Position numbers and translations under genes: made by a program. The notes beneath the pieces are model-generated. The model saw only the letters and a list, made by a program, of their open reading frames with translations, had not been told where the DNA came from and searched no databases. This document shows positions 27,428 through 47,785 of a stretch of 64,000 nt of DNA, piece by piece; the first letter of the stretch is position 1; every line of letters starts with the position of its first letter. The DNA comes from an uncultured Verrucomicrobiae bacterium. Lineage in GTDB: Bacteria; Verrucomicrobiota; Verrucomicrobiia; Limisphaerales; Palsa-1400. Location of the stretch: contig CAVXRD010000002.1 of the NCBI GenBank assembly GCA_963764165.1, positions 2,496,001 to 2,560,000 on the forward strand, written 5' to 3'.

Positions 27428-28126
27428 ATGCTCATCATGGATCCAATGGGAAATACGATGGAACGGCCCGATTCTGACAAAGTAAAGCCGACTCGTGCAG
27501 GCGGTTGGCGCGGCAAAATCCTTGGAGTGATTGCGATCACCCTGGTCGGGTGGGCCTTTTGCTATTTTACCTTCACACAGGGCCTGAGCCGTTTCAGCTA
27601 TGATTTTCCGATGCTTCTCGAACCGGAAACCGTGCCACACGAGGCAGTCATCGTTTACATGGATGATAAATCCAGGACTAATTTCAACCAGCCGTTGGAA
27701 GGGCTGTGGGACCGCGCGCTGCATGCGCGACTGCTAAAGAGGCTTACTTACCTTCACGCCCGGGCTGTCGCTTTCGATGTATTGATGGACAGGACATGGA
27801 CTAACGCGGTGGTGGATCAGGAGTTCGCCGAGGCCATCACAAACGCCATCACCAACCATGTGGATGTGGTTCTGGGAGCGGTACTGGATTCGCAGCTTCA
27901 GGAGGGTGGCGGCGCGGAATTATTGCAACCCGTTAATCCCATCGGCTCAGCGGCGCCTTGGGGCGAAGCAGGATTGTTGTGTCTGCCACTCTTTCCCGGA
28001 GATATGGAGATGGACCACGTTGTCCGTTCGACAGGTCTGTTACTCGAATTGTACCAACTTGGCGTGGCAGACGGCGGCCACCCTCGGCCTGGCTCCGCCA
28101 GACCCCGCCAAGGAGCGTTGGATTAA
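27428..28126 (+). CDS. CHASE2 domain, N-terminal part of a frameshifted CHASE2-Ser/Thr kinase
   Basis: TM helix, RFSYDFP, VIVYMDDKS, WDRALHARLL..L....ARAVAFDVL, DQEFAEAI and VVLGA. The homologous reading continues in the +1 frame from about 28029. Confidence 0.8.
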   Translation: MLIMDPMGNTMERPDSDKVKPTRAGGWRGKILGVIAITLVGWAFCYFTFTQGLSRFSYDFPMLLEPETVPHEAVIVYMDDKSRTNFNQPLEGLWDRALHARLLKRLTYLHARAVAFDVLMDRTWTNAVVDQEFAEAITNAITNHVDVVLGAVLDSQLQEGGGAELLQPVNPIGSAAPWGEAGLLCLPLFPGDMEMDHVVRSTGLLLELYQLGVADGGHPRPGSARPRQGALD

Positions 28127-29573
28127 CTATTACGGCCCGAAAGGAACGATACCGCATGTGCGTTACTGCACGGTTTTGGATGATACCGCCGCGCTGCACA
28201 TAGATGTCTCGAATAAAATTGTGTTTGTCGGAAAGCTCCGGTGGCCTACGTCTCAAGGCGATCAGATGCTATTTCCCGAACACCCAACGCGGTGGATGCT
28301 GTCCCAGTTCGGCGACGAATTCTCCACCCCTTTGTCAGGGTGGGAAGGCGGCCCCAGCCCTGGGGTCGAGATTCACGCCACAGCTTTTTTGAATCTGATT
28401 CGCGGGGACTGGATCTCCCGCCTTTCGGTGCCCGCGGAAATGGGGCTTATATTGCTATTTGGGGCTGCGCTTGGAACCGCGCTCCCCGGGAGGCAGGCCT
28501 CCGCGGCATTGCTCTTGAGCGCGGGCCTTTTCCTGGTGGCGTGCCTCGGCGGGATTCTCCTGGAACAAAAGGCGCACTATTGGTTTTCGTGGGCCTCAAT
28601 TGCATTTGTGGAAGTTCCGGCGGGTTTTGGCTGGTATGCGTTTGGCATTTTGCGCCGCAAGGCGCTTCCGCCAGAGCCGGCATCTCCGCCTCCGCCGGTC
28701 GTTTCGCCGCGGGAAGAAGCTATCGCTGTGCCGACGCCAGCGGAACCGCCTAAGCCTGAAATCCCTGACCACGAATTGTTGCGCGTCATTGGCCAGGGAA
28801 GTTTCGGCAGAGTGTGGCTGGCCAGGAACGTCGCTCTTAACACATTTCGCGCCGTCAAAGTTGTTTCGCGCTCGGCCTTCCAGAACACCGGTCCTTTCGA
28901 TCGTGAATTTCGCGGGATTCAAGCCTTTGAACCCATCTCGCGGCTGCATGAGGGGTTCGTCGACATTCTTCAAGTAGGCTACCGGGATGATGCCGGTTAC
29001 TTTTACTATGTGATGGAGCTGGCTGACGACCAACGAACCGGACAAAACATCAATCCCGCCAATTATGTCGCAAAAACGCTGGCCAGCGAGCGAACCAGGC
29101 TTAAGAAATTGCCCTACGAGGAATGCTTCCAAATTGGCGTAGCCCTTTGCGCGGCGCTGCAAAATCTCCATGATCGCGAACTGCTGCATCGCGACCTCAA
29201 GCCCTCGAATATTATCTTCGTCGAGAACACGCCCAAACTGGCGGACGTGGGTCTGGTCATCCCCGCTGGCGACGCCAAAACCATGGCTGGCACTCCCGGG
29301 TTCATGCCGAGGGATGGAGCTGGGACGTTCAGCGGGGATATTTACAGTCTTGGCAAGGTGCTTTACGAAATCAGCACTGGAAAGAGGGCCGACGAATATC
29401 CGTCGCTCCCCGATTCGATCGGCGGGCGCGCCGAGGCGGAGCAATTCAAGGCTATGAACAATATCATCCATAAAGCGTGCCACGAAACAGCGAAAAGCCG
29501 ATACCGGTCGGCGGCGGGGTTGCAAGTCGCGCTCAAACGCGCCGCCGGTCAATTGCATCGGAAACAAGAGTGA
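27858..29573 (+). CDS. CHASE2 C-terminal part, three TM helices and a Ser/Thr protein kinase (coding part from about 28029)
   Basis: WINYYGP, KIVFVG and PGVEIHATAFLNL (CHASE2); TM helices; Pro-rich linker; IGQGSFGRVW, AVK, HRDLKPSN, ADVGL, GTPGF and DIYSLG. Confidence 0.88.
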   Translation: MWMWFWERYWIRSFRRVAARNYCNPLIPSAQRRLGAKQDCCVCHSFPEIWRWTTLSVRQVCYSNCTNLAWQTAATLGLAPPDPAKERWINYYGPKGTIPHVRYCTVLDDTAALHIDVSNKIVFVGKLRWPTSQGDQMLFPEHPTRWMLSQFGDEFSTPLSGWEGGPSPGVEIHATAFLNLIRGDWISRLSVPAEMGLILLFGAALGTALPGRQASAALLLSAGLFLVACLGGILLEQKAHYWFSWASIAFVEVPAGFGWYAFGILRRKALPPEPASPPPPVVSPREEAIAVPTPAEPPKPEIPDHELLRVIGQGSFGRVWLARNVALNTFRAVKVVSRSAFQNTGPFDREFRGIQAFEPISRLHEGFVDILQVGYRDDAGYFYYVMELADDQRTGQNINPANYVAKTLASERTRLKKLPYEECFQIGVALCAALQNLHDRELLHRDLKPSNIIFVENTPKLADVGLVIPAGDAKTMAGTPGFMPRDGAGTFSGDIYSLGKVLYEISTGKRADEYPSLPDSIGGRAEAEQFKAMNNIIHKACHETAKSRYRSAAGLQVALKRAAGQLHRKQE

Positions 29574-29667: not shown

Positions 29668-30300
29668 ATGAGCGCATCGAAGAAAGCGGCTGAGATTATA
29701 CCCACCAACCCCAGCCTCCTGAACCGCATCAAGAATATAGAGGACAGCGCCAGTTGGCGGGAATTCTTTTCCATCTACCGGAATTTGATCTACGGAGTGG
29801 CCAAGAAGAGCGGCATGACTGACGAGGAAGCCGAAGACGTCGTGCAGGAGACCATGCTGGCCGCCGCCAAGCACATCAAGAATTTCCAATATGATTCATC
29901 CAGATCGTTCAAGGCTTGGCTCTTGGCAATAACCAAGACCAAGGTCGCGGACCAGTTCCGCGCCCGTCCGCCAGTTCAAATTTCCCAGCCGCGCCCCACT
30001 AGCCAGGCCAACCGCACGAAGACCGTGGAACGCATCCCGAATCCCACGGGCTACGACATAGACGCGCGATGGGAGGAAGAGTGGCGGTTGAATTTGCGGG
30101 ATGCCGCCCTGGCCGAGCTGCGCCATACTGTCAACGCCAAACAATTTCAATTGTTCGAAGCCCACGTTATCAAAGGCTGGCCGGTGGAAAAAGTGATGGG
30201 CGCCTTTGGCGTCACGGCCGATGTCGTCTATCAAAACAAAAAGCGGATGACTCCGAAGTTCCAGGAGAAAGTCTCCCGGCTCCAGGAACGGCTTCATTGA
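29668..30300 (+). CDS. ECF-type RNA polymerase sigma-70 factor
   Basis: TNPSLLNRIK...SWREFFSIYRNLIY..A...GM..EEAEDVVQE...FQYD..RSFKAWL...EEEW...FQLF...V...FGVT...VY..K.R. Confidence 0.92.
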   Translation: MSASKKAAEIIPTNPSLLNRIKNIEDSASWREFFSIYRNLIYGVAKKSGMTDEEAEDVVQETMLAAAKHIKNFQYDSSRSFKAWLLAITKTKVADQFRARPPVQISQPRPTSQANRTKTVERIPNPTGYDIDARWEEEWRLNLRDAALAELRHTVNAKQFQLFEAHVIKGWPVEKVMGAFGVTADVVYQNKKRMTPKFQEKVSRLQERLH

Positions 30301-30342
30301 ATCGGCAGCCGGCCGGAGGACTTTCCAACCGGCCAGCCAGGC

Positions 30343-31662
30343 TTACGGTCCAAGCTGGATGGCTTCAGCATTGGTTTTGGTCAGGACAAACCCGCCGCCA
30401 TTGGTGGCATTGAGCAGAATGACGCCGCGACCCGTCAGCTCTTTTGTCCCGCTGCCGATGTTTACTGTCAACAATCCTGTTTTGGGGTTCAGCGAGCCGC
30501 TCACGCTTCCTGAGCCGGACCTTTTGCTCACATTGAATTTGCCGCTGATGGCGACATCAAAGTTGCTGCGATCGGTGGCGGGGTCGTTGAAAAGGCCGAG
30601 AATCGCCAGATTAGTCATGGCCGCAAGAGTGCTGGCCGATGGGGGATTTGTCCAAGGCGACAACGCAACGAGGTTGGTGGCGGTGAAGGAGTTTCTAATC
30701 AAACCAGCGCCAGGGCGGGGATGAACCCAGACCAGACCCGTGCCGGGCTGGCTGTCGGGGTTCAGATTAATCCAGCCCATGAGTAGGCCTTTGTTGCCGT
30801 AAAGACTGGCGAAGATAGGAATATTGCCGTTTTGGGAAACAGGGACCACCTCGTTGAATGCCGTGCCATCGGCCAGCGTCCCGGCAATGGTGGCGCAGGC
30901 GCTGGCGGGGTCTTTGGTGGCGCCTGCGTAATTGGTAATCGACGCAAAACCGGCGCCGCCGGGCGAAGTGCCCGGCGCGCTGTTTGTGTCGGGCAGGATC
31001 AGCATGGTATACCGAGCTGAGGGCGCGTTGGGGGATCCCCGGTCGGCCGTCAGCGTGGCTACCCACGGCACATTCTCGTTCGTTCCAGAAACCGTCCCAA
31101 TGACCTCAGGCGGCGAATTATTCAAACTCAACAGTATCATGGCCACCGTCAGGTGGCCTCCTCCGCTGGCGGCGCGCAAGATATGATTGGTGGCCTGCCC
31201 CGTCAAACCAAAGCTGCCGCTTAAGGAATGGCTCGCGCCGTTGATGAAAACCGTGCCGGTGAACGCACCCTTCTGGCCGATGGATAGCTTCAGCCTGCCC
31301 GCGGTTTGTTCCGTCACTCCGCCGGCTGTCAGGAAAAGGCCGTTGTACGAGCCTGCCAGGGCGGTGTAGGGATTTGTCACAAAATTGGCCTCCAAAATGA
31401 GGTTGTTGGAAAAGTAAAAAGAAACGGCTGGGTTGGTGGATAGAAAGGTCATGCTGCCAACATTGGTGCCGCGGCTCCAATTGGCAAAAAGCCAGTTGGT
31501 TCCGTTCCCCACAGAGGCTGTGGCGGCATATTTGGCCCCCACTATCAATCGCGCGCCGTTGGTGGCTTTTCCCGCGCCCTTGATATTTCCCACGCCATTG
31601 GCAAGGAGCGTCAGCGTTCCGTAGCTCGGCGGAACAGCGTTGTTCGAAACTGTAGGCCCCAA
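30343..31662 (-). CDS. C-terminal part of a frameshifted LRR surface protein: InlB-B-like repeat plus conserved beta-rich domain
   Basis: Homologous to 46463-47785 and to the C-terminus of 34149-37799 (ANFVTNPY..LAGSYNGLF, GTLADG, LYGNKGLLMGWIN). Joins the upstream ORF at about 31648. Confidence 0.8.
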   Translation of the reverse strand: MGPTVSNNAVPPSYGTLTLLANGVGNIKGAGKATNGARLIVGAKYAATASVGNGTNWLFANWSRGTNVGSMTFLSTNPAVSFYFSNNLILEANFVTNPYTALAGSYNGLFLTAGGVTEQTAGRLKLSIGQKGAFTGTVFINGASHSLSGSFGLTGQATNHILRAASGGGHLTVAMILLSLNNSPPEVIGTVSGTNENVPWVATLTADRGSPNAPSARYTMLILPDTNSAPGTSPGGAGFASITNYAGATKDPASACATIAGTLADGTAFNEVVPVSQNGNIPIFASLYGNKGLLMGWINLNPDSQPGTGLVWVHPRPGAGLIRNSFTATNLVALSPWTNPPSASTLAAMTNLAILGLFNDPATDRSNFDVAISGKFNVSKRSGSGSVSGSLNPKTGLLTVNIGSGTKELTGRGVILLNATNGGGFVLTKTNAEAIQLGP

Positions 31663-34135
31663 CTGGATACGCGAATTGGTTCGCCTCTAGCTTCAAGGAT
31701 TGGTTGGAGGGCGTCGAATAACCATTGATGGGCTTGAACTCAATCACCACGTCGCTTGCCGCAACTGATTTGCTGGTTCCCGAGAAGCTATAGGAAGTCT
31801 CCCCTTGCAGGCGCCACCCAGCCCCTGCCTGCACTGCTGAGGCGGGTTTCAATTGGGCTTGCACATAAGCGGGATTGTTCGCGGTGACCTGGCCCGCTAA
31901 AATCTCACTCACGCCGCCGGAAGGAGAATCCTTTCGGGCGGTTGACGCTGCTGCCGGCGCATGTTTCAACTCACTCTCGCTGGGCCTGCTGTCTGTCTCG
32001 TTGCCGGCTGCGTTGGCTGCGTCATTGATGAGATGGGTGACATCGCTGTCAATGGCACGGACAGCCGAGGCAATCGGCACGAGTCCTTGGTAGACGGTTC
32101 CCACATAAATGGCTGCCGGATAATAGGCGCCATTGGACGATGCATAGAGTGCGCCTCCGTTATATCCGGGAAAACTTAGGAACGAGTCGGCCAGGTAAAC
32201 CTCCGCGGCGGCTGAGGGTTGATCGGTGGCTTGGCGGAGGGAATTTGTTTGCGGCAAAATCTCATACATGTACCCATTGGTAATGCCAGGTTCGCCAAAC
32301 TGCGACCCGTCCACGGGATAACCCACCAGCATTTTTTCGTTCGTGCTGGTCAGCCAGGGGTTCATTGGCGCGTCCGAAGCAAGATAACTGGTGCAGGCGC
32401 TTCCCGCCGTGGACGAAATAAAAAACAAGGCCGCCACATCGAAGTTACGTGATCCCGGACTTGATTGCCCCGGCGCCAGGCCGGCCTGGAGATCGCCGGT
32501 TCGTTGCGAAGCATAACCGCTAAGCACATACCAGCCCCGCGCCTGTAACGGGGCCGGCACGGACAGATTCGTCTCCTCCTGGGAAAACCAAGTCGCCTGG
32601 CTGGCGTAAGACAACGTCTGATCATTGAACACCACGTCCGCCGCCGTCAAAACCACATTGGGCAGCACGGCCACGCCGCTGCCATAGCCTGCGTCCGTTT
32701 GCAACTGCCCGTTGAACGCAAATGGAGCCTCGGCAATCTGGCCTGGGGGCACCGGCTTCGGCAGGCTAAAGTTGGCTGGCAGGTTGCTGGTCGTAACAGC
32801 CGGCAGGTAAGTTACCTGCCGCACCGTCGGCGTTCCAGGCGCGACCAGGACGGAAAGATTGGCAGGCGTGGCATAATGGCTGACCGGCGCGAAACCAATG
32901 AGATAGGTTCCTGGCGCCAAGCTGGCGCTGTAACCGGATGAAAAGGAAAACAGGTTGGTGGCGCCCACAAGCCCCCAGGCGGCTCCGGCCGGCGGGCTGG
33001 GGACAAAGTTTACCGTCAGCAATCCCATTGTGCTCACGTTAGTGGAGGCTATAATGGGAGAATAACAATTGGTGAGAAGCGTCGTCACCCCGCTGGTGAC
33101 GGCCACCAGTCCCGGATTGGTGGGAGCCAGGTAGCCCGGCGCCGTGCTGAATACCACGGAGTAATCCGCACCAGGAACCAGATTCGAGACGATAGAGCCG
33201 CTATTGCGCCAGGCCCCTTCCCAGGAAAATCGCCACTGTCCATTGGCGGAGGCAGGAAGAAGCGTGACCTGAATGGCGCCGGGCGCGTCCAATGGCACGG
33301 CGGGAAGACCCGCGAAAGAATTGCTCCAGCCCGTTGTTCCAAACAAATAATAGGCCGTTGCGTGATTGTCATCCGTGAAAACAGTCGCATCCGCAGCGGG
33401 CGCGCTGCCCTGAAAATAGACGCCGGACAGGCGGCCGCAGTCTTGGAACGCAGAGTCTCCAATGCTCGTGGCGCTGCTTGAGATCGTGACATTGGTCATG
33501 TTGGTGCAGCGATAAAACGCGTCGGCTCCGATGCTGGTGACGCTGTTGGGGATCACTACGCTGGCCAGGCTGTAACACTCCGTAAATGCATTGTTTCCGA
33601 TGCTGGTAACGCTGCTGGGGATAGTGATGCCGGCCAGGCTGTAGCATTCTGTAAACGCATATTCCTCAATTGTGGTGACGCCGTTGGGAATCGTGACGCT
33701 GACCAGATTGGTGCAGTCCTGAAACGTCAGTGATTGGACGCTGGTTACCAAGCTGGGGATCGCTACGCTGGTCAGACTGGAGCAGGCATAGAACGCAAGG
33801 TCTCCAATGCTGGCGATGCTGTTGGGGATCGTGACATTGGTCAGGCTGGAGCATCCATAAAACGCGTAGCCGCTGATGTTGGTGACGCCGTTCGGGATCG
33901 TGACGCTGGTTAAGCTCGTGTCATCGTAAAACGCATTCGTTCCGATGCTGATTACAGGCATGCCGCTAATGTTGGCTGGAATGACCACGGCCCAGGGAGG
34001 CCCGGCATAACCGGTGATGGTCAGGGTTCTGCCATCGGCGTTTGTCATGTACGTGAATTGGGCTTGCGCTTCCGCCGGCGATGCCAGCAGAAGCAGCAAG
34101 CCAAAAAGAACAAGCCATGTTCTTTTGACAGTCAT
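31118..34135 (-). CDS. Secreted BspA-type leucine-rich-repeat (LRR_5) protein with Ig-like modules and a degenerate trypsin-like domain; frameshifted at about 31648
   Basis: Signal peptide (KRTWLVLFGLLLLLASPAEAQA-Q); 23-aa repeats L.SVTIPNSVTSIG..AF..C; GSGVAVLPNVVLTAADVV...DVAAL...PGYNGGAL. Residues after GAYS are out of frame. Confidence 0.85.
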   Translation of the reverse strand: MTVKRTWLVLFGLLLLLASPAEAQAQFTYMTNADGRTLTITGYAGPPWAVVIPANISGMPVISIGTNAFYDDTSLTSVTIPNGVTNISGYAFYGCSSLTNVTIPNSIASIGDLAFYACSSLTSVAIPSLVTSVQSLTFQDCTNLVSVTIPNGVTTIEEYAFTECYSLAGITIPSSVTSIGNNAFTECYSLASVVIPNSVTSIGADAFYRCTNMTNVTISSSATSIGDSAFQDCGRLSGVYFQGSAPAADATVFTDDNHATAYYLFGTTGWSNSFAGLPAVPLDAPGAIQVTLLPASANGQWRFSWEGAWRNSGSIVSNLVPGADYSVVFSTAPGYLAPTNPGLVAVTSGVTTLLTNCYSPIIASTNVSTMGLLTVNFVPSPPAGAAWGLVGATNLFSFSSGYSASLAPGTYLIGFAPVSHYATPANLSVLVAPGTPTVRQVTYLPAVTTSNLPANFSLPKPVPPGQIAEAPFAFNGQLQTDAGYGSGVAVLPNVVLTAADVVFNDQTLSYASQATWFSQEETNLSVPAPLQARGWYVLSGYASQRTGDLQAGLAPGQSSPGSRNFDVAALFFISSTAGSACTSYLASDAPMNPWLTSTNEKMLVGYPVDGSQFGEPGITNGYMYEILPQTNSLRQATDQPSAAAEVYLADSFLSFPGYNGGALYASSNGAYYPAAIYVGTVYQGLVPIASAVRAIDSDVTHLINDAANAAGNETDSRPSESELKHAPAAASTARKDSPSGGVSEILAGQVTANNPAYVQAQLKPASAVQAGAGWRLQGETSYSFSGTSKSVAASDVVIEFKPINGYSTPSNQSLKLEANQFAYPVGAYSFEQRCSAELRNADAPCQWRGKYQGRGKSHQRRAIDSGGQICRHSLCGERNQLAFCQLEPRHQCWQHDLSIHQPSRFFLLFQQPHFGGQFCDKSLHRPGRLVQRPFPDSRRSDGTNRGQAEAIHRPEGCVHRHGFHQRREPFLKRQLWFDGAGHQSYLARRQRRRPPDGGHDTVEFE

Positions 34136-34148
34136 GCTGCCGTATGTT

Positions 34149-37100
34149 TCACTGGCCCTCGATGAGAAGCAAGCCGCTTTGATTTGTTCCAAGGAAGTAG
34201 CCTTGAGCGCTGGCCTGGCTTTGCAAAATGACGCCGCCGACTTTAATTGTCTTTTTCGAAACGGCCGGATTGGCGAAGCTGCCGCTGATGACTCCCGTCG
34301 TTTTGTTGGTGGTCAATGTCAGCTTGTCCGCGTTTCTTGGCAAGGTTGGGATCGTGATCGTAAGCGGCGGATTGTCGAGCTGCAATTCCACCGTCAGTCC
34401 TGGAGGCAGCTTCTGGCCCCCAAGGTAGTTCTCTCCCACCAGCGTCGCCTCCTGATTGGTGAAGCCCGAACGGCAGACCGCTGTTTTCGACGCATTTGTC
34501 GCATTGATCCAGCTTAGCGGATAAGCACCGGTGATGGTATGATTGGTGAAATAATTCCAGCCCCACAGCGAGCCCTTGCCGCCATACAAATTCACATAGA
34601 AAGGCCACAGTCCTTCTTTTGACACTTTTGTTGATTGGCTGAGGGGGGTGCCATCGGCCAGGCTCCCGGCCAGCGTGATGTTTCCCAAACTGTCCACCTT
34701 CACGGTTCCGTAACTGGCTCCAAAAGGGCCATATAGTGAATCGTTCGTGCCGGGAATGATGAAGGTATACTGGCCTTCAAACAGAGAGGCTTTGTATGAA
34801 CTGCTGAACACGGCCCGATCACCTCTTAATTGGCTGCTGAACTCGGCGTTGCTAATGGCGCCACTGACGGATTGATCGGCAAAATCCAATTGCAGGGCCG
34901 TGGTCAGTGAAGGAATGCCGCCGATTTTCTTTGAAACAATGAGCGCCGCTCCCCCGAGGTCGAACTTGCCTGAAAGGGGCACCTTCTCGCCACTCAAATC
35001 AAGAGTGCCGGAGATGGCGCCGCCGCTGGTCACGCTGAATGAGAACGAGCCTGAGTTGGACTGCTCCCGCATGGAGCTTTCCGGGGCAAAGAGACCTCGG
35101 TAGGTTCCCTCCGCTTCAAGGAAAACATTGGTCGCGAAATTGGCCACCACGACGAGGTTGGACGCCATGGTAAACTTGTAAACAGGGCTGGTGCTCAGCA
35201 TCGAGTAGGGCGGGTTGGTTCCACCCACCCAGCCGATGAAGACGTTCCTGGCCTTGGCTCCGGCGGTGACTGTGTATTTGGTTCCGATCTTCAGCTTCTT
35301 GGACCACGTTGCGTGCTGGATGGTGCCCGATCCGTTGGTCAGAAGCACCAGTTCGGCGCTCGGGGCGTTGGACGTGTAGATGCCGCTAGCCAGGGCCGTC
35401 ACGCCGTCGGTGATCGTGACCACTTGGTTCGACGGCGCATCCCAATTGGAAACGGAGGTAAACGACAATGTGTGGCTGCCCGCCGCCAAATTGGCCACGG
35501 TCGCCCCGCTGGTCTGATTGGGTCCTCCATCCACCTGCCATTGAGCTGCGCTGCGCAGAGCGGCTGGGAGCAGATCGACAGTCAAGGCACCCGAGGTGGA
35601 CGTCCCTATCAACGTGTAAAGGACGTTGGTTGGCGTGTTCACACCGCTGGTGATCGTAACCGTTTGATCCGCAGGAATATTCCATCCGGCAATGGGTTTG
35701 AATGAAACAGAGTGCGTTCCCGGCGGCACATTCGCCATCACGGCGCCGTTGGTTTGCCATGGACCAGCGCCATCCAGTTGCCACTCGGCCCCGGCGGCGA
35801 CTGCGGCGTCTGGCAGCAGAGTAACCGTCAGACTGCCCAGCCCTCCCGACGTCAAGGTGGTATTAGAGGCGGTGCCGGAGATTTTAACCCTCAGCCCGCA
35901 TGGATTGCCCCCATCCGGCTGCGAATTATAGACAATGAAATCCAGCGTATTGGTTCCAGCGACAAAATTGCTGGATATGACATACGGTCCAAACCAGGTT
36001 TCGAAGTCCGAAGGGGCCGGAAAATTCGATATCGAGCTTATCCCATTTACTAATACATCCTCAAGTTGGTTATCAGCGATAGCTTGAAAGGTAATTTCGG
36101 CAGTGGCCGGATCGAATCCAGTAAGATCAAACGTCGTCCGAAAGTCATATGAGCCCATAGGATCCTGGCTCTCGAAGCCATAACTCGGCTGAGGGGTGAC
36201 CCAGAGTGAATACGAGTCATCATTGAGCCAGCCGCCGTCTCCGACGGGGTAACCATTTGTCTCGACCGCGTAAGCCGCGAAGGGCGTTGCCGCAGTGCCG
36301 TCGGGGGCGGAAATGATAACGTAATGCGGATCTTGGGTTCCTGTGGGCAACGGATTAAATTGGTCGTCCAGCCCTGTGCTGTAGATCGTGAAGTTCGTCA
36401 GGCCGGATTCCGTCGTGAAGATTGAGCTGGGTTCGAGCACCACCACTTGGCCCGCGCCGCTTCCGGGCGCCAGCGCAACGATGATGTCCAGGCGTCCGTC
36501 CTGGTTTAGGTCGTCGACCACCACATTCTGGATGGTTTGAGCGCCGAAATCATTCTCCCAAAGGACTTGAGTTAAAGCGCCATTGAGGATGACCAATGTG
36601 TCATTCCCGCTGGTCGGCTGATACACCGCCAGAACTTGCTGGGCGCCAGTTCCAGCCAGATCCGCCACCGCCACTGGAATGAAAAGTCCGCTGGCGCGGC
36701 TGTAGCTTGCTGTGGCCGTCAAATTTGAACCGAAGGCGAGCAGAAAAGGCGACGTGCCTTCATAAGAAGCCACAACGATCTCATCCCCAGGCACACCGTC
36801 CAAGTCGCCGAAGGCTGCGTTATCAATGTCAATGTAATGGCCCAAATTGAATTCGGCCATCTCCGCGCCATTGGTGGGATTCAACATTTGAAGGCCACCG
36901 TAACCATAGTCGCCCAGGCTCCAGCCGTGTTCCGACGTCGTCGCCACAATCTCGCGTGTTCCGTCCCCGTTCAAGTCGGGCAGATACACTCCGGAATCAA
37001 GAAATCCGCCGGAAGCGTAAGATTGCAGCCAGTTTAGCGCACCCGTGGCGGGCGCATAACTCCAGGTGTAATTGGCATTATCAACTGTGCCGTCCGCGCC

Positions 37101-39185: not shown

Positions 39186-39278
39186 GCCCTGTTTAAGGCG
39201 AACTCCAGGTCAAGACGGATTCCGCGCGGCCTCTCTTTCAGAGCCTCTACGGAGGCGGTGTGTTGGCGACTTGAAACT

Positions 39279-42200
39279 ATGTGGCGAACCATTATTGTCA
39301 CCCTGTTTTGCGCGTTTGAACTGCCGGCGCAAACAACCAATCTGGCGGCGCTCGCCAAGGGGCAGGCGCTCGTGCTGTTTGTGGAAAACCGCGCGGAGGT
39401 GCTGCGCAGCGGCGCCACCTCATGGGATCCGGCCACCACCAACGCCCCGTATAATATTCTCAAGCACGGGGATCAGCTGCGCACCCAGACTAACAGCAGG
39501 GCTGTCATCTGGTATCCCGATGGCAGAGGCGCAGTCACCTTGGGGCAGTCAACCCGTGTCCAGCTTCCGCTTGACTCGGAGGATGAGTCCACCCTTCAGA
39601 TTTGGCTGGGCAAGGTGTTCAATTTTCATCGCGGCCCGCCCGGCAAGCTGCGCTTTAATACGCCCACCACCCCCGCCATTGTTCGCGGCACGGAGTTTGT
39701 GCTGCAAGTGGACGCCGACAGCACGAGCATCACCGTTTTCAATGGTGAAGTGGATATGGAAAACAAGTGGGGGCAGTTGACTCTTGCCAGCGGCCAGTCC
39801 GGCGTGGCCCGGCTCGGAGCGCCTCCGGCCCGCACTGCCGTAGTCGCGACGATGGATTTGATTCAGTGGTGCATGTATTATCCGGGGGTGCTGTGCCTGG
39901 ACGACGTGGCCCCGGGCGGATTGGGCGGCGACTTGCAGGACTCGGTGAATGCCTATCGCAGTGGCAACCTTATTGAAGCTCTCAAGCTATGGCCGGCCCA
40001 ACGGGTTCCAGTATCAGACGATGAACGCGTCTATAAAGCGGCTTTGTTGCTGAGTGTTGGAAACGTCGACGGAGCATGGGACTTGCTGGCTGGGTTGAGC
40101 CCTGGCACATCCGCCCCAGGGGAAGGGGCTGCGCCGCGCAGGCTGGGCCGCGCGCTGGAACGGTTTGTCACGCTGGTCAAAACCAACAACATAGCCACTC
40201 TGGCTGGCGCGGACACCAGCCATTTTTGTGCGACGGAGTGGCTGGTTGAATCTTACTATTTGCAGGCGCAATTCCGTTTGGAGGCGGCCCGGGAGGCGGC
40301 CCGCCAGGCGGTGGCGCGCGCGCCTGACTTTGCCTTTGCGTGGGAGCGCTTGGCTGAATTGGAGTTCGGATTTGGGCGTGTCAACCAATCGCAGGAGGAT
40401 TTGGCCAGGAGCTTGGAGCTGGCGCCGCGAAATGCCCAGGCGGTCGCCTTGCGCGGCTTTCTTCTGTCCGCGCAGAATCGAATCAAGCCAGCCATCGCTG
40501 AGTTTGATCGCGCCATTTCCCTGGATGGCAGTCTTGGCAATGCCTGGCTTGGGCGCGGCTTGTGCTGGATTCGCCTGGGGCGGACGAGCCAGGGCCTCGA
40601 CGATATTGAAGTGGCGGCTGCCGTGGAACCGCAACGGGCTTTGTTCCGCAGTTACTTGGGCAAGGCGTTTAGCCAGGCGGGGCTGGATGAAAAAGCCACA
40701 AAGGAGCTAAAGCTGGCCCGAGAATTCGATCCTCGCGATCCAACGGCGCGGCTCTACTCGGCGCTGCTGGAACAGCAGGAGAATCAAATCAACACTGCCA
40801 TTTCAGATCTGCAGTCCGCCGAGGCCGATAATACAAACCGCAGCGTGTTCCGCTCGCGTCTGCTGCTGGACCAGGATCACGCCGTGACCAGCGCCAACCT
40901 GGCTTCCGTTTACCGCGACGCAGGCATGACCGATGTCAGCGTCCGGGAAGCGGCACGGGCGGTCAACGACGATTACGGCAACGCCGCCGCGCATTTGTTC
41001 CTATCCGACAGCTACTACTCACTGCTTGATCCCACGCAGTTCAACCTGCGTTACGACACGGTTTGGTTTAACGAATTGCTCCTGGCCAACATTCTGGCTC
41101 CTGTGGGCTCCGGGCGCCTTTCCCAGCAAGTCTCGCAACAGGATTACTCCAAGCTATTCGAGGCAGATGGCCTGGGCGTGGCAAATTCAACCGACATCCG
41201 GACTGACGGGATGATCCGCCAGACAGCATCCCAGTTCGGCGCCTACGGCGATACTGGCTACGGTTTTGACCTCGACTACACCCATAACAACGGTTTTCGA
41301 GTGAATAACACTTTGGATAATCTCAGCATGGACGCGACACTCAAGCAGCAAGTCGGGCCGCATGACACCGCCATGCTGCTGGTGGAATACGAAAATTTCC
41401 ATTCCGGCGATAATAATCAGTATTACTACCAAAGCGATGCCCTGCCCTATTACAGCTTCGCCGAGCAGCAGCAGCCCGAGCTGGTCGGCACATGGCATCA
41501 CGAGTGGGCGCCCGGCATGCATACGCTGCTTCTTCTAGGCAGGCTGGTGGACGACCAGCAATTTGCTGATAGAGCGGCGCCGCAACTGAAACTCGACGAG
41601 AGCGGCGGCGTTATTTCCGGGGGATCCGGTGCCGATGCATTCGACGCGCGCTACCGGGAAACATTTGAAATTTATTCAGCCGAACTGAACCAAATTTGCC
41701 AATGGGACAGAGTCACCCTGTCGGCCGGCGGGCGTTACCAATCAGGCGAGTTCCGCACGCAAGATCAGTATGCGAATCCATCAAGCAACCTGGCTATTTT
41801 ATTCGCGCCGTCTTACAGCGGCAATACGGTTGGTCTTTTCCAGCGAGCCACAGCTTATTCCTATCTCACCGTCCAGCCGGTGGAGCATCTGTGGCTTACC
41901 GGCGGATTGGCGGCTGACGCCGAAAAATTCCCCGACACCTTTCGCAATCCGCCCGTCAGCTCAGGCGAAGACAGCCGCTCTCAACTCGGTCCCAAAGCCG
42001 CCCTGGTCTGGAGTCCTGCTCCGGAAGCGACCGTGCGCGGGATCTACACCCGGTCGCTCGGCGGCGCCAGTCTGGACGAAAGCTACCGCCTGGAGCCGAC
42101 CGAATTGGCGGGCTTTCCGCAAGCCTTCCGCAGCCTTATTCCCGAGTCGGCCCAAGGCGTCGCTTCCCAATCGGCCCCGACCTTGGAAACCATGGGCGGG

Positions 42201-42806
42201 GCTCTCGATCTTAAATTTGGCGGCCGCACCTATTTGGGATTCCAGGCCGAGCGCCTGGCCTCGCGGGTGAATCAAGGCCAGGGCGATTTCGTCGTGAGCG
42301 AGGACAGCTCGGGCGATATTGAGGGGCCAGCCGCGGTTTCCTCCACGCCGGAACAATTCAATTACGTCGAGCACGACGGTTCAGTCAGCCTCAACCAGCT
42401 TCTGGGCGGCGGATTCGCTCTCGGCGCCGCCTATAAAGTCACCCAATCCGACCTTCACCAAATGTATCCCGCCATTCCGGCTTTTGTCATCGCGCCCAAC
42501 CACTTTCAATCGACCCTGCAGGAAATTGACAATTACATCCTGTTCAACGACCGCTCTGGCTTCTATTGCAAGTTCGACGCGCATTGGTATGGCCAGAAGA
42601 ATTCCGGCTGGACGCCCATGGAGCCATACTCCAGTTTCTTCCAGGAAAACATCTACGCCGGCTACCGTTTTCTGCACCGCCGGGCCGAATTGCAGCTGGG
42701 CATCCTCAACCTTGCCGGCGGCGGCTACAATCTAAACCCGCTGACCGCCTATCAGGAATTGCCCATGAAGCGGGTGTTTGAAGCAAGGTTTAACTTCATT
42801 TTCTAA
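39279..42806 (+). CDS. FecR domain, TPR repeats and a C-terminal TonB-dependent-receptor-like outer-membrane beta-barrel
   Basis: Signal peptide; FecR motifs LKHGDQLRT..NSRA, FNTPTTPAIVRGTEF and VFNGEV; TPRs (PDFAFAWERLAEL, LGNAWLGRGL, RSYLGKAF); amphipathic beta-strands ending RVFEARFNFIF (terminal Phe). Confidence 0.88.
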   Translation: MWRTIIVTLFCAFELPAQTTNLAALAKGQALVLFVENRAEVLRSGATSWDPATTNAPYNILKHGDQLRTQTNSRAVIWYPDGRGAVTLGQSTRVQLPLDSEDESTLQIWLGKVFNFHRGPPGKLRFNTPTTPAIVRGTEFVLQVDADSTSITVFNGEVDMENKWGQLTLASGQSGVARLGAPPARTAVVATMDLIQWCMYYPGVLCLDDVAPGGLGGDLQDSVNAYRSGNLIEALKLWPAQRVPVSDDERVYKAALLLSVGNVDGAWDLLAGLSPGTSAPGEGAAPRRLGRALERFVTLVKTNNIATLAGADTSHFCATEWLVESYYLQAQFRLEAAREAARQAVARAPDFAFAWERLAELEFGFGRVNQSQEDLARSLELAPRNAQAVALRGFLLSAQNRIKPAIAEFDRAISLDGSLGNAWLGRGLCWIRLGRTSQGLDDIEVAAAVEPQRALFRSYLGKAFSQAGLDEKATKELKLAREFDPRDPTARLYSALLEQQENQINTAISDLQSAEADNTNRSVFRSRLLLDQDHAVTSANLASVYRDAGMTDVSVREAARAVNDDYGNAAAHLFLSDSYYSLLDPTQFNLRYDTVWFNELLLANILAPVGSGRLSQQVSQQDYSKLFEADGLGVANSTDIRTDGMIRQTASQFGAYGDTGYGFDLDYTHNNGFRVNNTLDNLSMDATLKQQVGPHDTAMLLVEYENFHSGDNNQYYYQSDALPYYSFAEQQQPELVGTWHHEWAPGMHTLLLLGRLVDDQQFADRAAPQLKLDESGGVISGGSGADAFDARYRETFEIYSAELNQICQWDRVTLSAGGRYQSGEFRTQDQYANPSSNLAILFAPSYSGNTVGLFQRATAYSYLTVQPVEHLWLTGGLAADAEKFPDTFRNPPVSSGEDSRSQLGPKAALVWSPAPEATVRGIYTRSLGGASLDESYRLEPTELAGFPQAFRSLIPESAQGVASQSAPTLETMGGALDLKFGGRTYLGFQAERLASRVNQGQGDFVVSEDSSGDIEGPAAVSSTPEQFNYVEHDGSVSLNQLLGGGFALGAAYKVTQSDLHQMYPAIPAFVIAPNHFQSTLQEIDNYILFNDRSGFYCKFDAHWYGQKNSGWTPMEPYSSFFQENIYAGYRFLHRRAELQLGILNLAGGGYNLNPLTAYQELPMKRVFEARFNFIF

Positions 42807-42819: not shown

Positions 42820-45800
42820 ATGAAAAAAACGTGGCTCGTCATTTTTTGTTTGTTGCTGTTGGGCGTTTCAGCGCCGGCACAAGGTCAATTTACATATACC
42901 AACAGCCACGGCACTCTTGTCATCACGGGTTATAGCGGGCCGGGCGGCGCGGTGAACATTCCAGCCACCATCAATGATCTAAAGGTCACCAGCATCGGAG
43001 ATTACGCATTCGCAGGCACAGATCTAAGCAGCATCGGCATTCCTGACAGTGTCACCAACATCGGTGACGGCGCGTTCAATTACTGCACGAACTTGGCGAG
43101 TATCACGGTTCCCGGCAGTGTCGTCAAATTTGGAGAAGGTGTCTTCAACTCTTGTTCGCGGCTGGCAAGCGCGACGCTCGAAGACGGAATTGTCGATATA
43201 GGAACAAACGAATTCCAAGATTGCGCAAGCCTAGTCTATATTAGCATTCCCAACAGCGTCACCAAAATCGACGATAACGCCTTCTATTCCTGCAGCAGCC
43301 TGACCAATATCGTGATTTCATCCAGAGTCGTCAGTATCGGAGGTTACGCGTTCTCCGAATGCATCAATCTGACGAGTATTGACATCCCGAGCGGCGTCAC
43401 CAAAATTGGGGAATTCTGCTTCGATGGCTGCACAAATCTCGGAGCGATTATTGTCAGCTCAAACAACCCCTCCTACGCCAGTGAGGCAGGTGTGTTATTT
43501 AACCATAAAAAGACCACTCTTGTAGGGTATCCGCAGGGAAAACCCGGGGCCTCCTACACTATACCCAGCACCGTCTCAAGTATCGGGGATTATGGGTTCT
43601 ATTCTTGTGCGCAGCTTGCCAACGTGGCGATCCCCGATAGTGTCACCAGCATTGGAAAAAGCGCATTCGGCTTCTGCACGAACCTGTCCACCATCACGAT
43701 TCCGGGCAAGGTGGCCAGAATTGGGGAAGCAGCATTCAACGACTGCTCGCAATTGGAAACTGTAACGCTCGAAAACGGTATCAAAGATATCGGAATGAAT
43801 GCGTTCCAAGACTGTATTAGCCTGACCAACGTCAGCATTCCCGGCAGCGTCACCAACATTGAGGACGGCGCGTTCAATGACTGCGCGAACCTGTCCAACA
43901 TGGCGATTCCGGGAAAGGTCGCCAGAATTGGGGAGGCTGCGTTCTACGACTGCACGCGATTGGCAGTTTTGACGCTCGAAGACGGTATCAAAGATATCGG
44001 AACGAATGCGTTCCAAGACTGTATTAGCCTGACCAACCTCAGCATTCCCGGCAGCGTCGCCAGCATCGGGGACTCCGCATTTGAAGGTTGTTCGGGCTTG
44101 ACCAGCGTTGCTATTCCTAACGGCGTCGTCAGCATTGGAAGCTTAGCGTTCTCGGAAACCAGCTTGACCAACGTCACGATTCCTGCCAGCTTAACCAACA
44201 TGGCTGGGTCACCCTTTGCCTACTGCCCAGGCCTGGCTGCCATCGTTGTGGATTCAAACAGCCGCGCCTATACAAACGTCGGAGGGGTTTTGTTTAACAG
44301 AAGCCAAACCGTCCTTGTCGGATTCCCCGAGGGTTATGCCGCGGTTTCCTACGTTATCCCTAACAGCGTGGCTAGCATCGGACCGTGGGCGTTCGGCGGC
44401 TGCAGCGGCTTAACGAACGTTTCAATCCCAGATACTGTCACCGGCATCGGGTATGGAGCATTCGCTGGTTGCAGTGGATTGACCAGTGTTTACATCCCAG
44501 ATAGTGTCACTGCAGTCGGATGGGGCGCGTTTGAAGACTGCACCAGCCTTTCAAGTGTCTCGATAGGCAATGGCGTTGAAATCATCGCGGATGCTACGTT
44601 TGAAGACTGCGGCAGCCTTACCAACGTTACAATCGGGAGCGGCGTTCAATTCCTCGACCCAGATGCATTTTTAGAATGCTTTAACTTGAGATATGTTCTT
44701 TTCGAGGGCAATGCCCCCCGCATCGGACCAGGTATATATGAACCGCACTGGGACGAGGAGTTGACGTTTTATTATCTGGCTGGTGCTAGCGGTTGGGATT
44801 CCAGTTACTACGATTACTATTACTATTACTATGGCATTCGGATTCAAATGTTGACCGCACACGGTCAGATCGAGGTCACTCTGCTGCCATCTTCCGCCAA
44901 CGGCCGGTGGCGGTTTCCTTGGGAGACGACTTGGCGGAACAGCGGCACGGCGGCGTCGAATCTGAACGCAGGCGAGTACCCCATTGTGTTTAGCACGGTG
45001 CCGGGTTACTTGACTCCCACTCTTCCATCGCCAGGATATGTGGCGGTCATTGGGGGCACCACCTTTGTCACCAATCAGTACTCTCCGGCCACTTCCTCAA
45101 GCAACGTCAACAACGTGGGAGCGCTCACGGTTAACTTTGTGCAATCCCCTCCCGCGGAGGCCGCATGGGGCGTGGCGGGCGGCCCCGCGCCGTCTTTCAC
45201 TTCCGGCTACAGAGTCAACCTGGCCGCTGGCAAGTATCTCATCGATTTCGCATCCGTCCCCGGTTATGCCACTCCCGCTGCCATATCAGTTCTGGTTGTG
45301 CCAGATTATCCTGCTGTGCTGTCGGTCAGTTACGCGCCTGTTATTCCGTTGTCCAACCTGCCGTCCAGCTTCACCAGCTTGCCAGTGCAGGTTCCTCCCA
45401 GCGAGATCAGCACGTCTCCTTTTGAGTTCAATGGCCAATTGCAAACAGATGTTGGGTACGGAAGCGGTGTGGCTGTGGAAGCGAACGTGGTGCTGACGGC
45501 TGCGGATTTGGTGTTCAACGACCAGACTTTGTCGTACGCAAGCCAGGCCACCTGGTTTCCCCAACAGGAAACAGGTGTGACTCCGCCCTACCCGATGACG
45601 GCGCGGGGCTGGTATGTGCTCAGCGGGTATGCCAGTAACCGAATCAACGATCTTCAAGATGGCTTGGCCCCAGGGCAGTCGAGTCCAGCGTCACGGAACT
45701 CTGACGTTGCAGCGTTGTTCTTTACGTCGCCGGTTGCGGGAGGGAATTCGGCGAGTTATCTATTTTCAGACGGGACGCCGAATGTGTGGTTGACCAGCCC

Positions 45801-46512
45801 GACAAATAAAATGATGGTGGGTTATCCTGTGGACGGGTCGCAGTTTGGCGTTATCAATATTACAAATGGCGAGATGTATGAGAACTCGCCGCAGACGAAT
45901 GCTTTGAATTGGGCCACCGATGAACCATTGGCCTACGATCAGGTTTACTTGGGAGACTGGTTTTTGGGTTATCAGGGGAACGCCGGGAGTCCATTCTATG
46001 TGGAGTCCAACGGTGTTTTTTGCCCGGCTGGCGTCTATTTGGGCACGGTGTCCGATGGGCTTCTGCCATACGCATCTGCTGTGCGAGCCATCGATAGCAC
46101 TGTCGTGGAATTGATCGATTATGCAGCGGAAGCCGGTGAGGGGCGGATTATTGCCAACGACGCGAACGGCTTGGACATGCCAGCGACGGGAGGGGACGGC
46201 AACGGGAGGCGAGACTCGCCTGCAGGGGGCACTACCCCGCTGGAGATCACTCCCAGTACAGTCAGCGCGAACAATCCAGGTTACGTGCAGATACAACTGC
46301 AACCGGCCTCGGCTGTCCTTGCGGGGGCCGGTTGGCGGATTCACGGTGAGTCCAGCTATCACAGTTCGGATGCCGTGAAGCAGGTGAATTCGTCCAACAT
46401 TGTGGCCATCCAGTTTGCGCCGGTAAGCGGGTATAGTCCTCCCCGCCATTCAGACCGTCACCGTGGTGCCGAATCAGGTTTCGACTTACGTTGGGGCCTA
46501 CATTTTGACTAA
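42820..46512 (+). CDS. Secreted BspA-type LRR_5 protein with Ig-like modules and a degenerate trypsin-like domain; frameshifted at about 46443
   Basis: Signal peptide MKKTWLVIFCLLLLGVSAPAQG-Q; about 20 LRR_5 repeats; GSGVAVEANVVLTAADLV...DVAAL...QGNAGSPF. Paralog of 31118-34135. Confidence 0.87.
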   Translation: MKKTWLVIFCLLLLGVSAPAQGQFTYTNSHGTLVITGYSGPGGAVNIPATINDLKVTSIGDYAFAGTDLSSIGIPDSVTNIGDGAFNYCTNLASITVPGSVVKFGEGVFNSCSRLASATLEDGIVDIGTNEFQDCASLVYISIPNSVTKIDDNAFYSCSSLTNIVISSRVVSIGGYAFSECINLTSIDIPSGVTKIGEFCFDGCTNLGAIIVSSNNPSYASEAGVLFNHKKTTLVGYPQGKPGASYTIPSTVSSIGDYGFYSCAQLANVAIPDSVTSIGKSAFGFCTNLSTITIPGKVARIGEAAFNDCSQLETVTLENGIKDIGMNAFQDCISLTNVSIPGSVTNIEDGAFNDCANLSNMAIPGKVARIGEAAFYDCTRLAVLTLEDGIKDIGTNAFQDCISLTNLSIPGSVASIGDSAFEGCSGLTSVAIPNGVVSIGSLAFSETSLTNVTIPASLTNMAGSPFAYCPGLAAIVVDSNSRAYTNVGGVLFNRSQTVLVGFPEGYAAVSYVIPNSVASIGPWAFGGCSGLTNVSIPDTVTGIGYGAFAGCSGLTSVYIPDSVTAVGWGAFEDCTSLSSVSIGNGVEIIADATFEDCGSLTNVTIGSGVQFLDPDAFLECFNLRYVLFEGNAPRIGPGIYEPHWDEELTFYYLAGASGWDSSYYDYYYYYYGIRIQMLTAHGQIEVTLLPSSANGRWRFPWETTWRNSGTAASNLNAGEYPIVFSTVPGYLTPTLPSPGYVAVIGGTTFVTNQYSPATSSSNVNNVGALTVNFVQSPPAEAAWGVAGGPAPSFTSGYRVNLAAGKYLIDFASVPGYATPAAISVLVVPDYPAVLSVSYAPVIPLSNLPSSFTSLPVQVPPSEISTSPFEFNGQLQTDVGYGSGVAVEANVVLTAADLVFNDQTLSYASQATWFPQQETGVTPPYPMTARGWYVLSGYASNRINDLQDGLAPGQSSPASRNSDVAALFFTSPVAGGNSASYLFSDGTPNVWLTSPTNKMMVGYPVDGSQFGVINITNGEMYENSPQTNALNWATDEPLAYDQVYLGDWFLGYQGNAGSPFYVESNGVFCPAGVYLGTVSDGLLPYASAVRAIDSTVVELIDYAAEAGEGRIIANDANGLDMPATGGDGNGRRDSPAGGTTPLEITPSTVSANNPGYVQIQLQPASAVLAGAGWRIHGESSYHSSDAVKQVNSSNIVAIQFAPVSGYSPPRHSDRHRGAESGFDLRWGLHFD
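43650..44065 (+). repeat. 207-nt (69-aa, three LRR units) tandem duplication
   Basis: ccgggcaaggtggccagaattgggga at 43702 and ccgggaaaggtcgccagaattgggga at 43909; gcgttccaagactgtattagcctgaccaac is identical in both copies. Confidence 0.85.
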
Positions 46513-47785
46513 CTCTAATTCTTTGCCAGCGGATTCCGCTTTGGCGGTCTTGATCAACGGCGTCGGCAAAATCACCAGTGCCGGCGGCGCAACCAACATG
46601 GCACGTTTGAAGCTCGGCAAGAGCTACGCCATCACCGCGTCCGAGTTGCCCGGACGCAACTGGATCTTCGCCAATTGGAGCAGCGGCACAAACATCGCCG
46701 ATCTGGCTTTGTATTCTACAAAGCCGGCGACGTCCTTCACCTTTTCCAGCAATTTGATTCTGGTGGCCAATTTTCAAACGAATCCCTTCCCCTCCATGGC
46801 CGGTGTTTACAATGGTCTTTTTGCCACCACAAATGGAGTGACGGAACAAACGGCAGGGATGCTTCACGGGCTGACTGTCAGCGGGAGCGGAACTTACAGT
46901 GGGACGCTCTTGATCAACGGAAAAGGCCACTCTTTCAGCGGCGCGTTTGATTTGGGCGGCCAGGCGAGCAATGTTATTTCACGCGCGATCAACCAACCTC
47001 TGACGGTTGCCATGACACTTTTGAATTTGAACCAGTCTTCCCCAGAGATAATCGGCACTGTGTCCGGAACCAGTAATGGTGTCGCTTGGGTTGCCGCTCT
47101 TTTAGCCGACCGAGCCTATCACAGTAAATCCTCGGCGGCGTACACCATGCTGATCCCGCCAGGCTCCAGCAGTGCGTCAGCCACAGTCCCTATTGGTGAC
47201 GGTTATGCCTTGATCACGAATCACGCTGGCACGGCTACCATTGCCGGCGCACTGGCCGATGGCGCCAAAATCATCCAGTCCGTTGCAGTTTCCCAGACGG
47301 GCAATGTTCCAATCTACGCCAACCTATCTGGCCAGCCGGGCCTTCTCATGGGCTGGATTAATCTGGACTCCGCCAGCGATGCCGGGGCGGGGCTGGCCTG
47401 GGTTCATCCCTCCGTCCCCAAAGGCCTATTCCCAGACGCGTTCACTAGCACCAACCCCATCGCGCTGTCTCTGTGGACCAAGACTCAGGCAATCGACGTC
47501 CTCGAACACCTGACAAATTTGTCGATTCTTGAACCGACCCATGGCGCTACTATCGAGACAAACAGCTTCGAGATAGCGATCGGCAACAATTTCAAATTGG
47601 GCAAGCTATCCGGCCCGGCCAAATTGAGTGGTTCACTCGCCTCCAAAACGGGATTGCTCAGAGTGACCAATGTCAGCGGGTCGGTCAAAGTGACCGGCCA
47701 AGGGGTGGTGCTGCTCAATACCACAAACGGCGGCGGATATATCCTGACCAAGGCCAACGCCCAAGCCATCCAGCTTGGACCATAA
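46463..47785 (+). CDS. C-terminal part of the frameshifted LRR surface protein (shared C-terminal domain)
   Basis: Closely similar to 30343-31662 (NGVG.I, LANFQTNPF..MAGVYNGLF, GALADG; both end TK.NA.AIQLGP). Confidence 0.8.
   Translation: MVPNQVSTYVGAYILTNSNSLPADSALAVLINGVGKITSAGGATNMARLKLGKSYAITASELPGRNWIFANWSSGTNIADLALYSTKPATSFTFSSNLILVANFQTNPFPSMAGVYNGLFATTNGVTEQTAGMLHGLTVSGSGTYSGTLLINGKGHSFSGAFDLGGQASNVISRAINQPLTVAMTLLNLNQSSPEIIGTVSGTSNGVAWVAALLADRAYHSKSSAAYTMLIPPGSSSASATVPIGDGYALITNHAGTATIAGALADGAKIIQSVAVSQTGNVPIYANLSGQPGLLMGWINLDSASDAGAGLAWVHPSVPKGLFPDAFTSTNPIALSLWTKTQAIDVLEHLTNLSILEPTHGATIETNSFEIAIGNNFKLGKLSGPAKLSGSLASKTGLLRVTNVSGSVKVTGQGVVLLNTTNGGGYILTKANAQAIQLGP

Follow-up and report, generated by a model that had tools for sequence, protein, structure and literature searches.

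A candidate NsrA-type envelope-spanning signaling system with a CHASE2 Ser/Thr kinase and an ECF sigma factor in a verrucomicrobial genome

Can an outer-membrane receptor direct the transcription of surface proteins through an inner-membrane kinase? This question is raised by a gene cluster in a 64,000-nucleotide stretch of DNA (the window) from an uncultured Verrucomicrobiae bacterium (GenBank assembly GCA_963764165.1, contig CAVXRD010000002.1, positions 2,496,001 to 2,560,000), which lies on contig C2 of a 7.0-Mb, five-contig assembly (genome G000). An earlier reading, made from the sequence alone, had proposed that an outer-membrane protein with a FecR domain and tetratricopeptide repeats (TPRs) ahead of a beta-barrel signals through a CHASE2-Ser/Thr kinase to an extracytoplasmic function (ECF) sigma factor governing three large surface proteins. 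In agreement with its inventory, a Pfam scan of the window matched CHASE2, protein kinase, sigma70 region 2, FecR plus TPR, BspA-type leucine-rich repeats (LRRs) and FG-GAP repeats; the tRNA-Arg flank, the ECF gene, the FecR-TPR protein and three large proteins carrying signal peptides (surfA, surfB and surfC) lie where they had been reported. Also confirmed were a membrane-anchored helical protein (HEL) beside the receptor and the lack of an anti-sigma open reading frame (ORF) next to the ECF gene. On balance, and with moderate confidence, we favor an NsrA-type envelope-spanning system in which the outer-membrane receptor acts through the CHASE2 Ser/Thr kinase and the ECF sigma on secreted surface proteins. 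Specifically, the FecR-TPR-barrel protein would pass a surface signal to the kinase, with the TPR arm holding FecR close to the inner membrane, where it would touch CHASE2; the kinase would then activate the neighboring ECF by phosphorylating it at a site other than that of EcfP, probably at the invariant N-terminal T13/S16, and the ECF is predicted to transcribe the secreted surface proteins. Attached to this there appears to be a second, older unit of secreted trypsin-fold proteins and HEL, an anchored solenoid that is probably their periplasmic chaperone or holder.

The outer half of this scheme has a characterized counterpart. The FecR domain of the window protein matches the annotated nsrA gene on pSymB of Sinorhizobium meliloti, which in that record lies directly upstream of cyaK, and FecR plus TPR could be aligned to NsrA by hhalign (99.7%, E 2.5e-25, 439 columns, 90-sequence profile). 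NsrA and CHASE2 cyclases transduce a protein signal (PMC7529298, PMC13001267), and signal transduction in S. meliloti requires both nsrA and cyaK (PMC7529298). Judged by homology in FecR and TPR, the window receptor is an NsrA-type outer-membrane protein, and the earlier statement that no characterized system has this wiring fails for the receptor-CHASE2 half, which corresponds to NsrA-CyaK. The barrel proposed at the receptor C-terminus is likewise borne out as being of the TonB-receptor type, PF00593 having been matched in 20/20 barrels scanned, with the window barrel at 25.9 bits, just below the cut-off of 27. A sequence scan of the receptor found no plug family at E 0.01, and no transmembrane (TM) helix was found in the FecR-barrel protein. 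Canonical FecR anti-sigma signaling was rejected because FecR is fused to the barrel protein and there is no separate anti-sigma gene. The barrel gene is intact, G000 holds one such barrel and one CHASE2-kinase, and strong barrel matches (best E < 1e-80) occur in 42 of 61 genomes, the source genome included.

Most strong barrel matches were fetched with their surroundings, some short fragments being omitted. A CHASE2 protein is encoded in 52 of the 74 barrel loci (within 1.2 kb in 49) and in 32 of the 41 having more than 4 kb of flank on both sides. The outputs of these 52 proteins, assigned by Pfam, are cyclase (30), Ser/Thr kinase (14), His kinase (3) and TIR (2), three more being cut by a contig end, and an ECF of the window's family is present in 11 of the 14 CHASE2-kinase loci. 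Furthermore, the tree distances of barrel and CHASE2 are correlated (rho 0.72, 43 pairs; best of 999 permutations 0.19), which is a sign of co-inheritance and not proof of binding. The co-occurrence predicted by the sequence-only reading is thus found in other genomes. PDB searches gave no useful match for CHASE2 by sequence and no solved CHASE2 structure by profile. CHASE2 ligands have been described as unknown (PMC5192318), and this family supplies many natural FecR-CHASE2 pairs for testing whether a protein ligand is the answer to what CHASE2 senses.

Other combinations of CHASE2 were observed alongside these. Next to the barrels most similar to that of the window, fusions of CHASE2 with a cytoplasmic TIR domain are encoded (L013:7969-9630 in genome G006; L016:13820-15463 in G008; and eight metagenome ORFs, e.g., L166, L183, L185 and L192), a possible envelope-triggered nucleotide-signaling or defence output. 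Cyclase, CHASE2 and Ser/Thr kinase are joined in one protein in two loci (L077:4439-7351; L106:8037-10928), possibly as intermediates of output swapping. In G000 itself, a stand-alone FecR protein adjoins a CHASE2 adenylate cyclase, without a barrel (C2:3558496-3561804).

Several observations weigh against the proposed relay. The NsrA barrel has no PF00593 match and shows only weak aligned stretches with the barrels of the window family, and 22 of the 74 barrel loci, nine of them with wide flanks, show no CHASE2. HEL and proteases characterize the clade (support 1.0) to which the window barrel belongs, and the barrels nearest to it there pair with CHASE2-TIR (two loci); the window CHASE2, however, groups with that of L050/L077 (0.967) and away from the CHASE2 proteins paired with that clade; correspondingly, the barrel-CHASE2 congruence of the window pair is only 0.24. 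Since CHASE2 and barrel come from different lineages, the cluster is a mosaic. These separate origins and the distance of about 10 kb between the CHASE2-kinase and barrel genes in the window would suit two uncoupled neighbors, i.e., barrel, HEL and protease on one side, and on the other a CHASE2-kinase and ECF of other origin that control surfB-surfA and a few distant genes and are deaf to the barrel. The lack of an ECF promoter at the barrel and HEL genes also fits such an arrangement, as does the lack of CHASE2 in the fetched stretches of barrel-clade members L017, L018, L020 and L021. We nevertheless consider it rather unlikely, given that G000 holds only a single barrel and a single CHASE2-kinase of these types, that members of this barrel clade repeatedly have kinase/ECF genes next to them elsewhere (L015, L161, L171, L190, L193 and L231) and that the predicted ECF targets fall inside the cluster.

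The integrity of the local genes bears on the same issue. The two halves of the CHASE2 match fall in different frames (27428-28126 and 27858-29573), and intact relatives align to both pieces; the fusion of CHASE2 to a kinase described earlier therefore stands as regards its domains, both of which are present, but not as a single ORF, the frame breaking near 28025. surfA and surfC each change frame just ahead of their C-terminal domain (near 31650 and near 46440, respectively), and only two of the 24 copies of this domain in the genome are separate ORFs, both in this locus. A genome-wide frameshift test, confined to genes sharing 50% or more identity with fetched relatives, found 2 cases in 225 genes (93,913 aa), one being surfA, so that three frame breaks in about 6,660 codons are an excess over background (Poisson 6e-5 to 1e-3). 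This excess favors decay, and the local cluster is probably a decaying mosaic. The breaks could instead be assembly errors, the cluster being intact in the living strain: the assembly has five contigs, the breaks are single-base, and kinase motifs and promoters are well preserved. The one frameshift outside the locus among the tested genes, as against three here, and the location of both severed C-terminal domains in this locus make this an improbable explanation, albeit one that keeps some weight. A relay operating in this very genome is not supported, the kinase gene here being frameshifted and its CHASE2 not being of the barrel's lineage. The G000 copy is a poor test object, and intact relatives, e.g., L040 and L015, are better suited.

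How the kinase would act on the sigma factor is the next step of the argument. In the window kinase, the G-loop, Lys, HRDLKPSN and DVG are intact and the PPE motif reads PRD; the catalytic motifs are retained across 17 aligned CHASE2-kinases. The ECF family, for which sigma70-ECF was the only family above cut-off in an NCBIfam scan, was found in 32 of 61 genomes, and 56 sequences were compared, with 40 extra loci fetched from the 32-genome list. A kinase, often a WD40 kinase, is encoded in the fetched stretch for 41 of these. Activation in the manner of EcfP (ECF43), a precedent named by the sequence-only reading, was rejected because the acidic EAED motif is kept and the EcfP phospho-position lacks Thr in all 56 sequences (Q in 31, E in 15, D in 7 and R in 3, with S or T in 0/56). 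T13 is conserved in 55/55 and S/T16 in 55/55 of the ECFs reaching these positions, and we infer from these alignments that T13 and S16 are candidate phospho-sites.

The same data can be read as indicating that the ECF is active alone, that the kinase holds it back, tethers it or has a different protein as its target, and that phosphorylation is not the activating step. An ECF that, like this one, retains the acidic motif does not have to be phosphorylated in order to bind polymerase; no sequence has S or T at the EcfP phospho-position, and 15 of the 56 ECFs show no kinase in the fetched stretch. Kinase-linked ECF groups other than ECF43 also keep the acidic motif and may work differently (PMC8999054, section 3.4), and four intact promoter sites persist in G000 despite the broken kinase gene. 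That there is no anti-sigma gene, that the N-terminal Thr and Ser/Thr are invariant and that the aligned CHASE2-kinases have kept their catalytic motifs render a self-active ECF doubtful in our judgment. For studying the activation of kinase-linked ECFs with a preserved acidic motif, the family offers T13/S16 as candidate sites and a promoter consensus usable as a reporter.

This consensus, TGAAAGA-N15/16-CGTA, was picked by eye ahead of small secreted genes. It has 29 matches in 19 of 59 ECF loci (827 kb), five of them the starting sites, vs. 4 in 172 other loci (2,179 kb), where two of the four share a contig with a family ECF. In ECF loci, it lies ahead of 5/5 small secreted genes, 4/18 barrels and 8/61 ECFs, and elsewhere ahead of 1/82 barrels; it is the probable promoter of the ECF family. 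A variant refined on the sites of G000 itself (TGTCAGAwT..CGTAT) matches four sites in the genome, each with the right spacing; 18 alternative spacings gave no match, and a looser pattern gave four sites at two spacings vs. 0.59 expected per spacing (about 1.2 in total). These four sites precede surfB, another LRR/C-terminal-domain protein and a small lipoprotein, or are divergent from the CHASE2 gene; two of them are in this locus and two precede C-terminal-domain proteins. The best site near the locus begins 35 nt before surfB. On the other side of the scale, a blind search for bipartite motifs in 10 upstream regions did no better than shuffles, the motif precedes none of five protease genes in ECF loci, and no own-strand site was found before surfC, HEL, the barrel, the ECF or the kinase gene of the window. 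Collectively, the predicted promoters argue for control of surfB-surfA by the ECF but not for control of the block as a whole, and the suggestion that the ECF controls the surface proteins gains support for this pair and not for surfC.

The second site of the locus (27454-27479, minus strand) points toward tRNA-Arg(TCG), 240 nt away; it may be what remains of a small gene since lost, or the tRNA may be transcribed from it. In L040 (7239-7997), L041, L043, L054, L074, L081 and L111, the ECF motif is followed by genes for small secreted proteins, which lie between barrel and CHASE2-kinase and combine an Ig-like part with a tail containing Cys; such proteins are typical of CHASE2-kinase loci, and none was found in G000 by profile. 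The ECFs of L054 and the window, whose loci have TGT- and not TGA- at -35, both carry Ala at one shared position before the sigma4 recognition-helix motif, these being two cases only.

The secreted proteins themselves share a C-terminal domain of about 400 aa, located at 30343-31662, 34149-35400 and 46463-47785, which has no Pfam match and ends many large secreted proteins (24 loci in G000). It is possibly a verrucomicrobial sorting or anchoring domain; a role as a locus-specific tag was rejected in view of its 24 copies. The three surface proteins are thus related, as had been described, by a shared domain that is not particular to the locus, two of them (surfA and surfC) being frameshifted. 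surfA and surfC also contain an unannotated trypsin-fold domain. At a lax threshold, PF13365 was matched in 15/20 members (the first member falling below the cut-off), and the domain profile matches PDB 1p3c over 4-219 (E 1.2e-5). The His-Asp-Ser triad is intact in 15/20 distinct domains from the genomes and in 30/34 rows from further loci, where the other four are partial or misaligned. Both window domains have Asp in place of His, and Asn or Ala in place of Ser, and are predicted from these substitutions to be inactive. These catalytic losses are partly common to L013 and L099, suggesting a non-catalytic subfamily and not decay alone.

HEL is predicted to be a helical solenoid (predicted local distance difference test, pLDDT, 90.8) with one N-terminal anchor. 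Lipase foldases have an anchor-linker-helical layout. A VIA search with the HEL structure gave generic HEAT/ARM matches (best Z 10.8, root-mean-square deviation 6.4, 274 aligned), with no foldase among the matches listed; a PDB sequence search gave no useful match, and HEL was nowhere found as part of a longer fusion, which is weak evidence. Atlas searches with HEL and the C-terminal domain led to verrucomicrobial clusters, HEAT families being assigned to 11-18% of members in two clusters. HEL and protease are each present in 12 of 61 genomes, with 11 of 13 genomes shared, and across 400 genomes of the phylum HEL occurs in 9 and the protease in 8, all 8 shared. At ten distant HEL loci, the protease is adjacent in six and the barrel in none, the FecR profile reaching at best 3e-13 in the distant genomes (9 genomes). 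Near the window's clade, the barrel is adjacent to HEL in 40 of 80 metagenome loci and the protease in 22. We infer that HEL was first a protease partner and joined the barrel system later. Counter to this order of events, HEL tree distances track those of the barrel (0.76) more closely than those of the protease (0.61) in the 15 loci having all three. A pairing of the helical protein with the TPRs alone is doubtful, as HEL also tracks the protease where no barrel is found. The HEL-protease pair is an uncharacterized partnership across the phylum.

The association of HEL with barrels invites another explanation, in which exporting or displaying the large secreted proteins is the barrel's main task, TPR and HEL serve as guides in the periplasm, and CHASE2 does no more than monitor the barrel. 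The lack of a plug match, a barrel clade that travels with HEL and proteases, and the 21 wide metagenome HEL loci (barrel in 19, protease in 14) are in line with this; the co-occurrence of HEL and protease in distant genomes lacking such a barrel (0/10 loci), the lack of a protease neighbor for most barrels and the genetic role of NsrA as a signal receptor (PMC7529298) make it distinctly improbable. Extending the envelope-spanning signaling system that we favor, it could be speculated, with low confidence, that FecR-barrel plus CHASE2 forms a general two-membrane plug-in, in which the FecR domain is the CHASE2 ligand and outputs (cyclase, His kinase, TIR, Ser/Thr kinase) are freely swapped. 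The kinase version would switch on a verrucomicrobial ECF by phosphorylation at the N-terminal TxxS/T, a second mechanism beside that of EcfP, and in the window's clade secreted trypsin-fold proteins would produce or present the signal, with a new membrane-anchored chaperone of the HEAT type handling them and the non-catalytic copies serving as binders.

The features of the locus are collected in Table 1. Outside the block, an apparently truncated ECF fragment with region 2 only lies just past tRNA-Arg (26506-26949), and a multiheme cytochrome c gene (48305-50356, minus strand), with a small membrane protein downstream, lies to the right.

Table 1. Features of the cluster and its flank, in window coordinates.
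Feature	Position	Strand	Remarks
tRNA-Arg(TCG), flank	27139..27215	-	~240 nt downstream of predicted ECF promoter
Predicted ECF promoter, TGTCAGAwT..CGTAT variant	27454..27479	-	Divergent from CHASE2 gene, overlaps its 5' end; without clear protein target
CHASE2-kinase gene, 5' part: TM1 and first CHASE2 half	27428..28126	+	Frame breaks near 28025
CHASE2-kinase gene, 3' part: second CHASE2 half, TM helices, Ser/Thr kinase	28029..29573	+	
ECF sigma, kinase-associated family	29668..30300	+	Acidic EAED motif retained; invariant T13, S16
surfA C-terminal domain, severed by frameshift	30343..31662	-	24-copy family in genome; no Pfam match
surfA: signal peptide, BspA-type LRR, trypsin-fold domain at 32003-32770 without catalytic His, Ser	31118..34135	-	
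surfB: signal peptide, FG-GAP repeats, C-terminal domain	34149..37799	-	Intact; without protease domain
Predicted ECF promoter, start 35 nt 5' of surfB ATG	37809..37834	-	Would drive surfB-surfA
HEL: N-terminal membrane anchor, linker, HEAT/ARM-like helical solenoid	38043..39185	+	Co-distributed with protease family
Weak TGAAAG-type site, HEL-barrel gap	39214..39240	-	Score 13.7; possibly relic of divergent gene occupying gap in relatives
NsrA-like outer-membrane protein: FecR, TPR arm, TonB-receptor-type barrel, C-terminal Phe	39279..42806	+	Intact, single copy, no plug match
surfC: signal peptide, LRR, trypsin-fold domain at 45373-46140 without catalytic His, Ser	42820..46512	+	
surfC C-terminal domain, severed by frameshift	46463..47785	+	

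Several known systems resemble parts of this cluster. As regards the attached unit, the trypsin fold is common to the window domains and the glutamyl endopeptidase/V8-like proteases (PDB 1p3c), whose His, Asp and Ser are found in most relatives, whereas the window domains lack His and Ser; HEL is like the lipase foldases in layout but matches only generic HEAT/ARM solenoids. FecA-FecR-FecI likewise combines a TonB-receptor-type barrel, a FecR domain and an ECF; in the window, however, FecR sits on the outer-membrane protein, without an inner-membrane anti-sigma and without a plug match. Exported FecR-type domains are encoded with CHASE2 transducers in Burkholderia (BiofilmReg LysM-FecR with a CHASE2 His kinase), in the CHASE2 cyclase clusters of Campylobacterota and with MtxA of Magnetospirillum; these operons have other outputs, and a kinase-ECF step is not described in the parts of the sources covered. 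CHASE2 kinases have been listed for cyanobacteria (PMC2176072).

At the inner end, EcfP/PknT and EcfK/PknS (ECF43) likewise pair an ECF lacking an anti-sigma with an adjoining membrane Ser/Thr kinase (PMC8999054, section 3.4), whereas the window ECF retains the acidic motif, lacks Thr at the EcfP site and has as its partner a CHASE2-bearing kinase with a link to an outer-membrane receptor. Groups ECF59, 61, 62, 217 and ECF267 have kinase neighbors as the window family does, often WD40 kinases as in ECF62, and ECF267 combines a FecR-TPR protein with kinases (PMC7826278). For these groups the same source lists Planctomycetes alone, or Sorangium/Chondromyces; their entries make no mention of CHASE2 in the portion of the supplement covered, and their promoter motifs are mostly reported as not conserved (PMC7826278), whereas the window family has one. 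A literature search, covering papers outside subscription and part of the ECF supplement, found no paper describing the combined receptor-CHASE2-kinase-ECF wiring.

At the outer end, the closest likeness is to NsrA-CyaK (CyaD1/D2)-Clr of S. meliloti, in which a FecR-TPR-barrel protein of about 1,200 aa is likewise encoded beside a CHASE2 inner-membrane transducer, and whose cyclase output is also that of 30 of the 52 CHASE2-bearing relatives of the window locus. The two differ in output (cAMP and Clr there, a Ser/Thr kinase and an ECF in the window) and in barrel sequences, which are unalignable, and the protease and HEL partners and the frameshifts belong to the window. Thus, the receptor-CHASE2 wiring was already known and the new part is a putative kinase-ECF version of NsrA-type sensing; the cluster resembles NsrA-CyaK at its outer end and the kinase-activated ECFs at its inner end, and is a member of neither.

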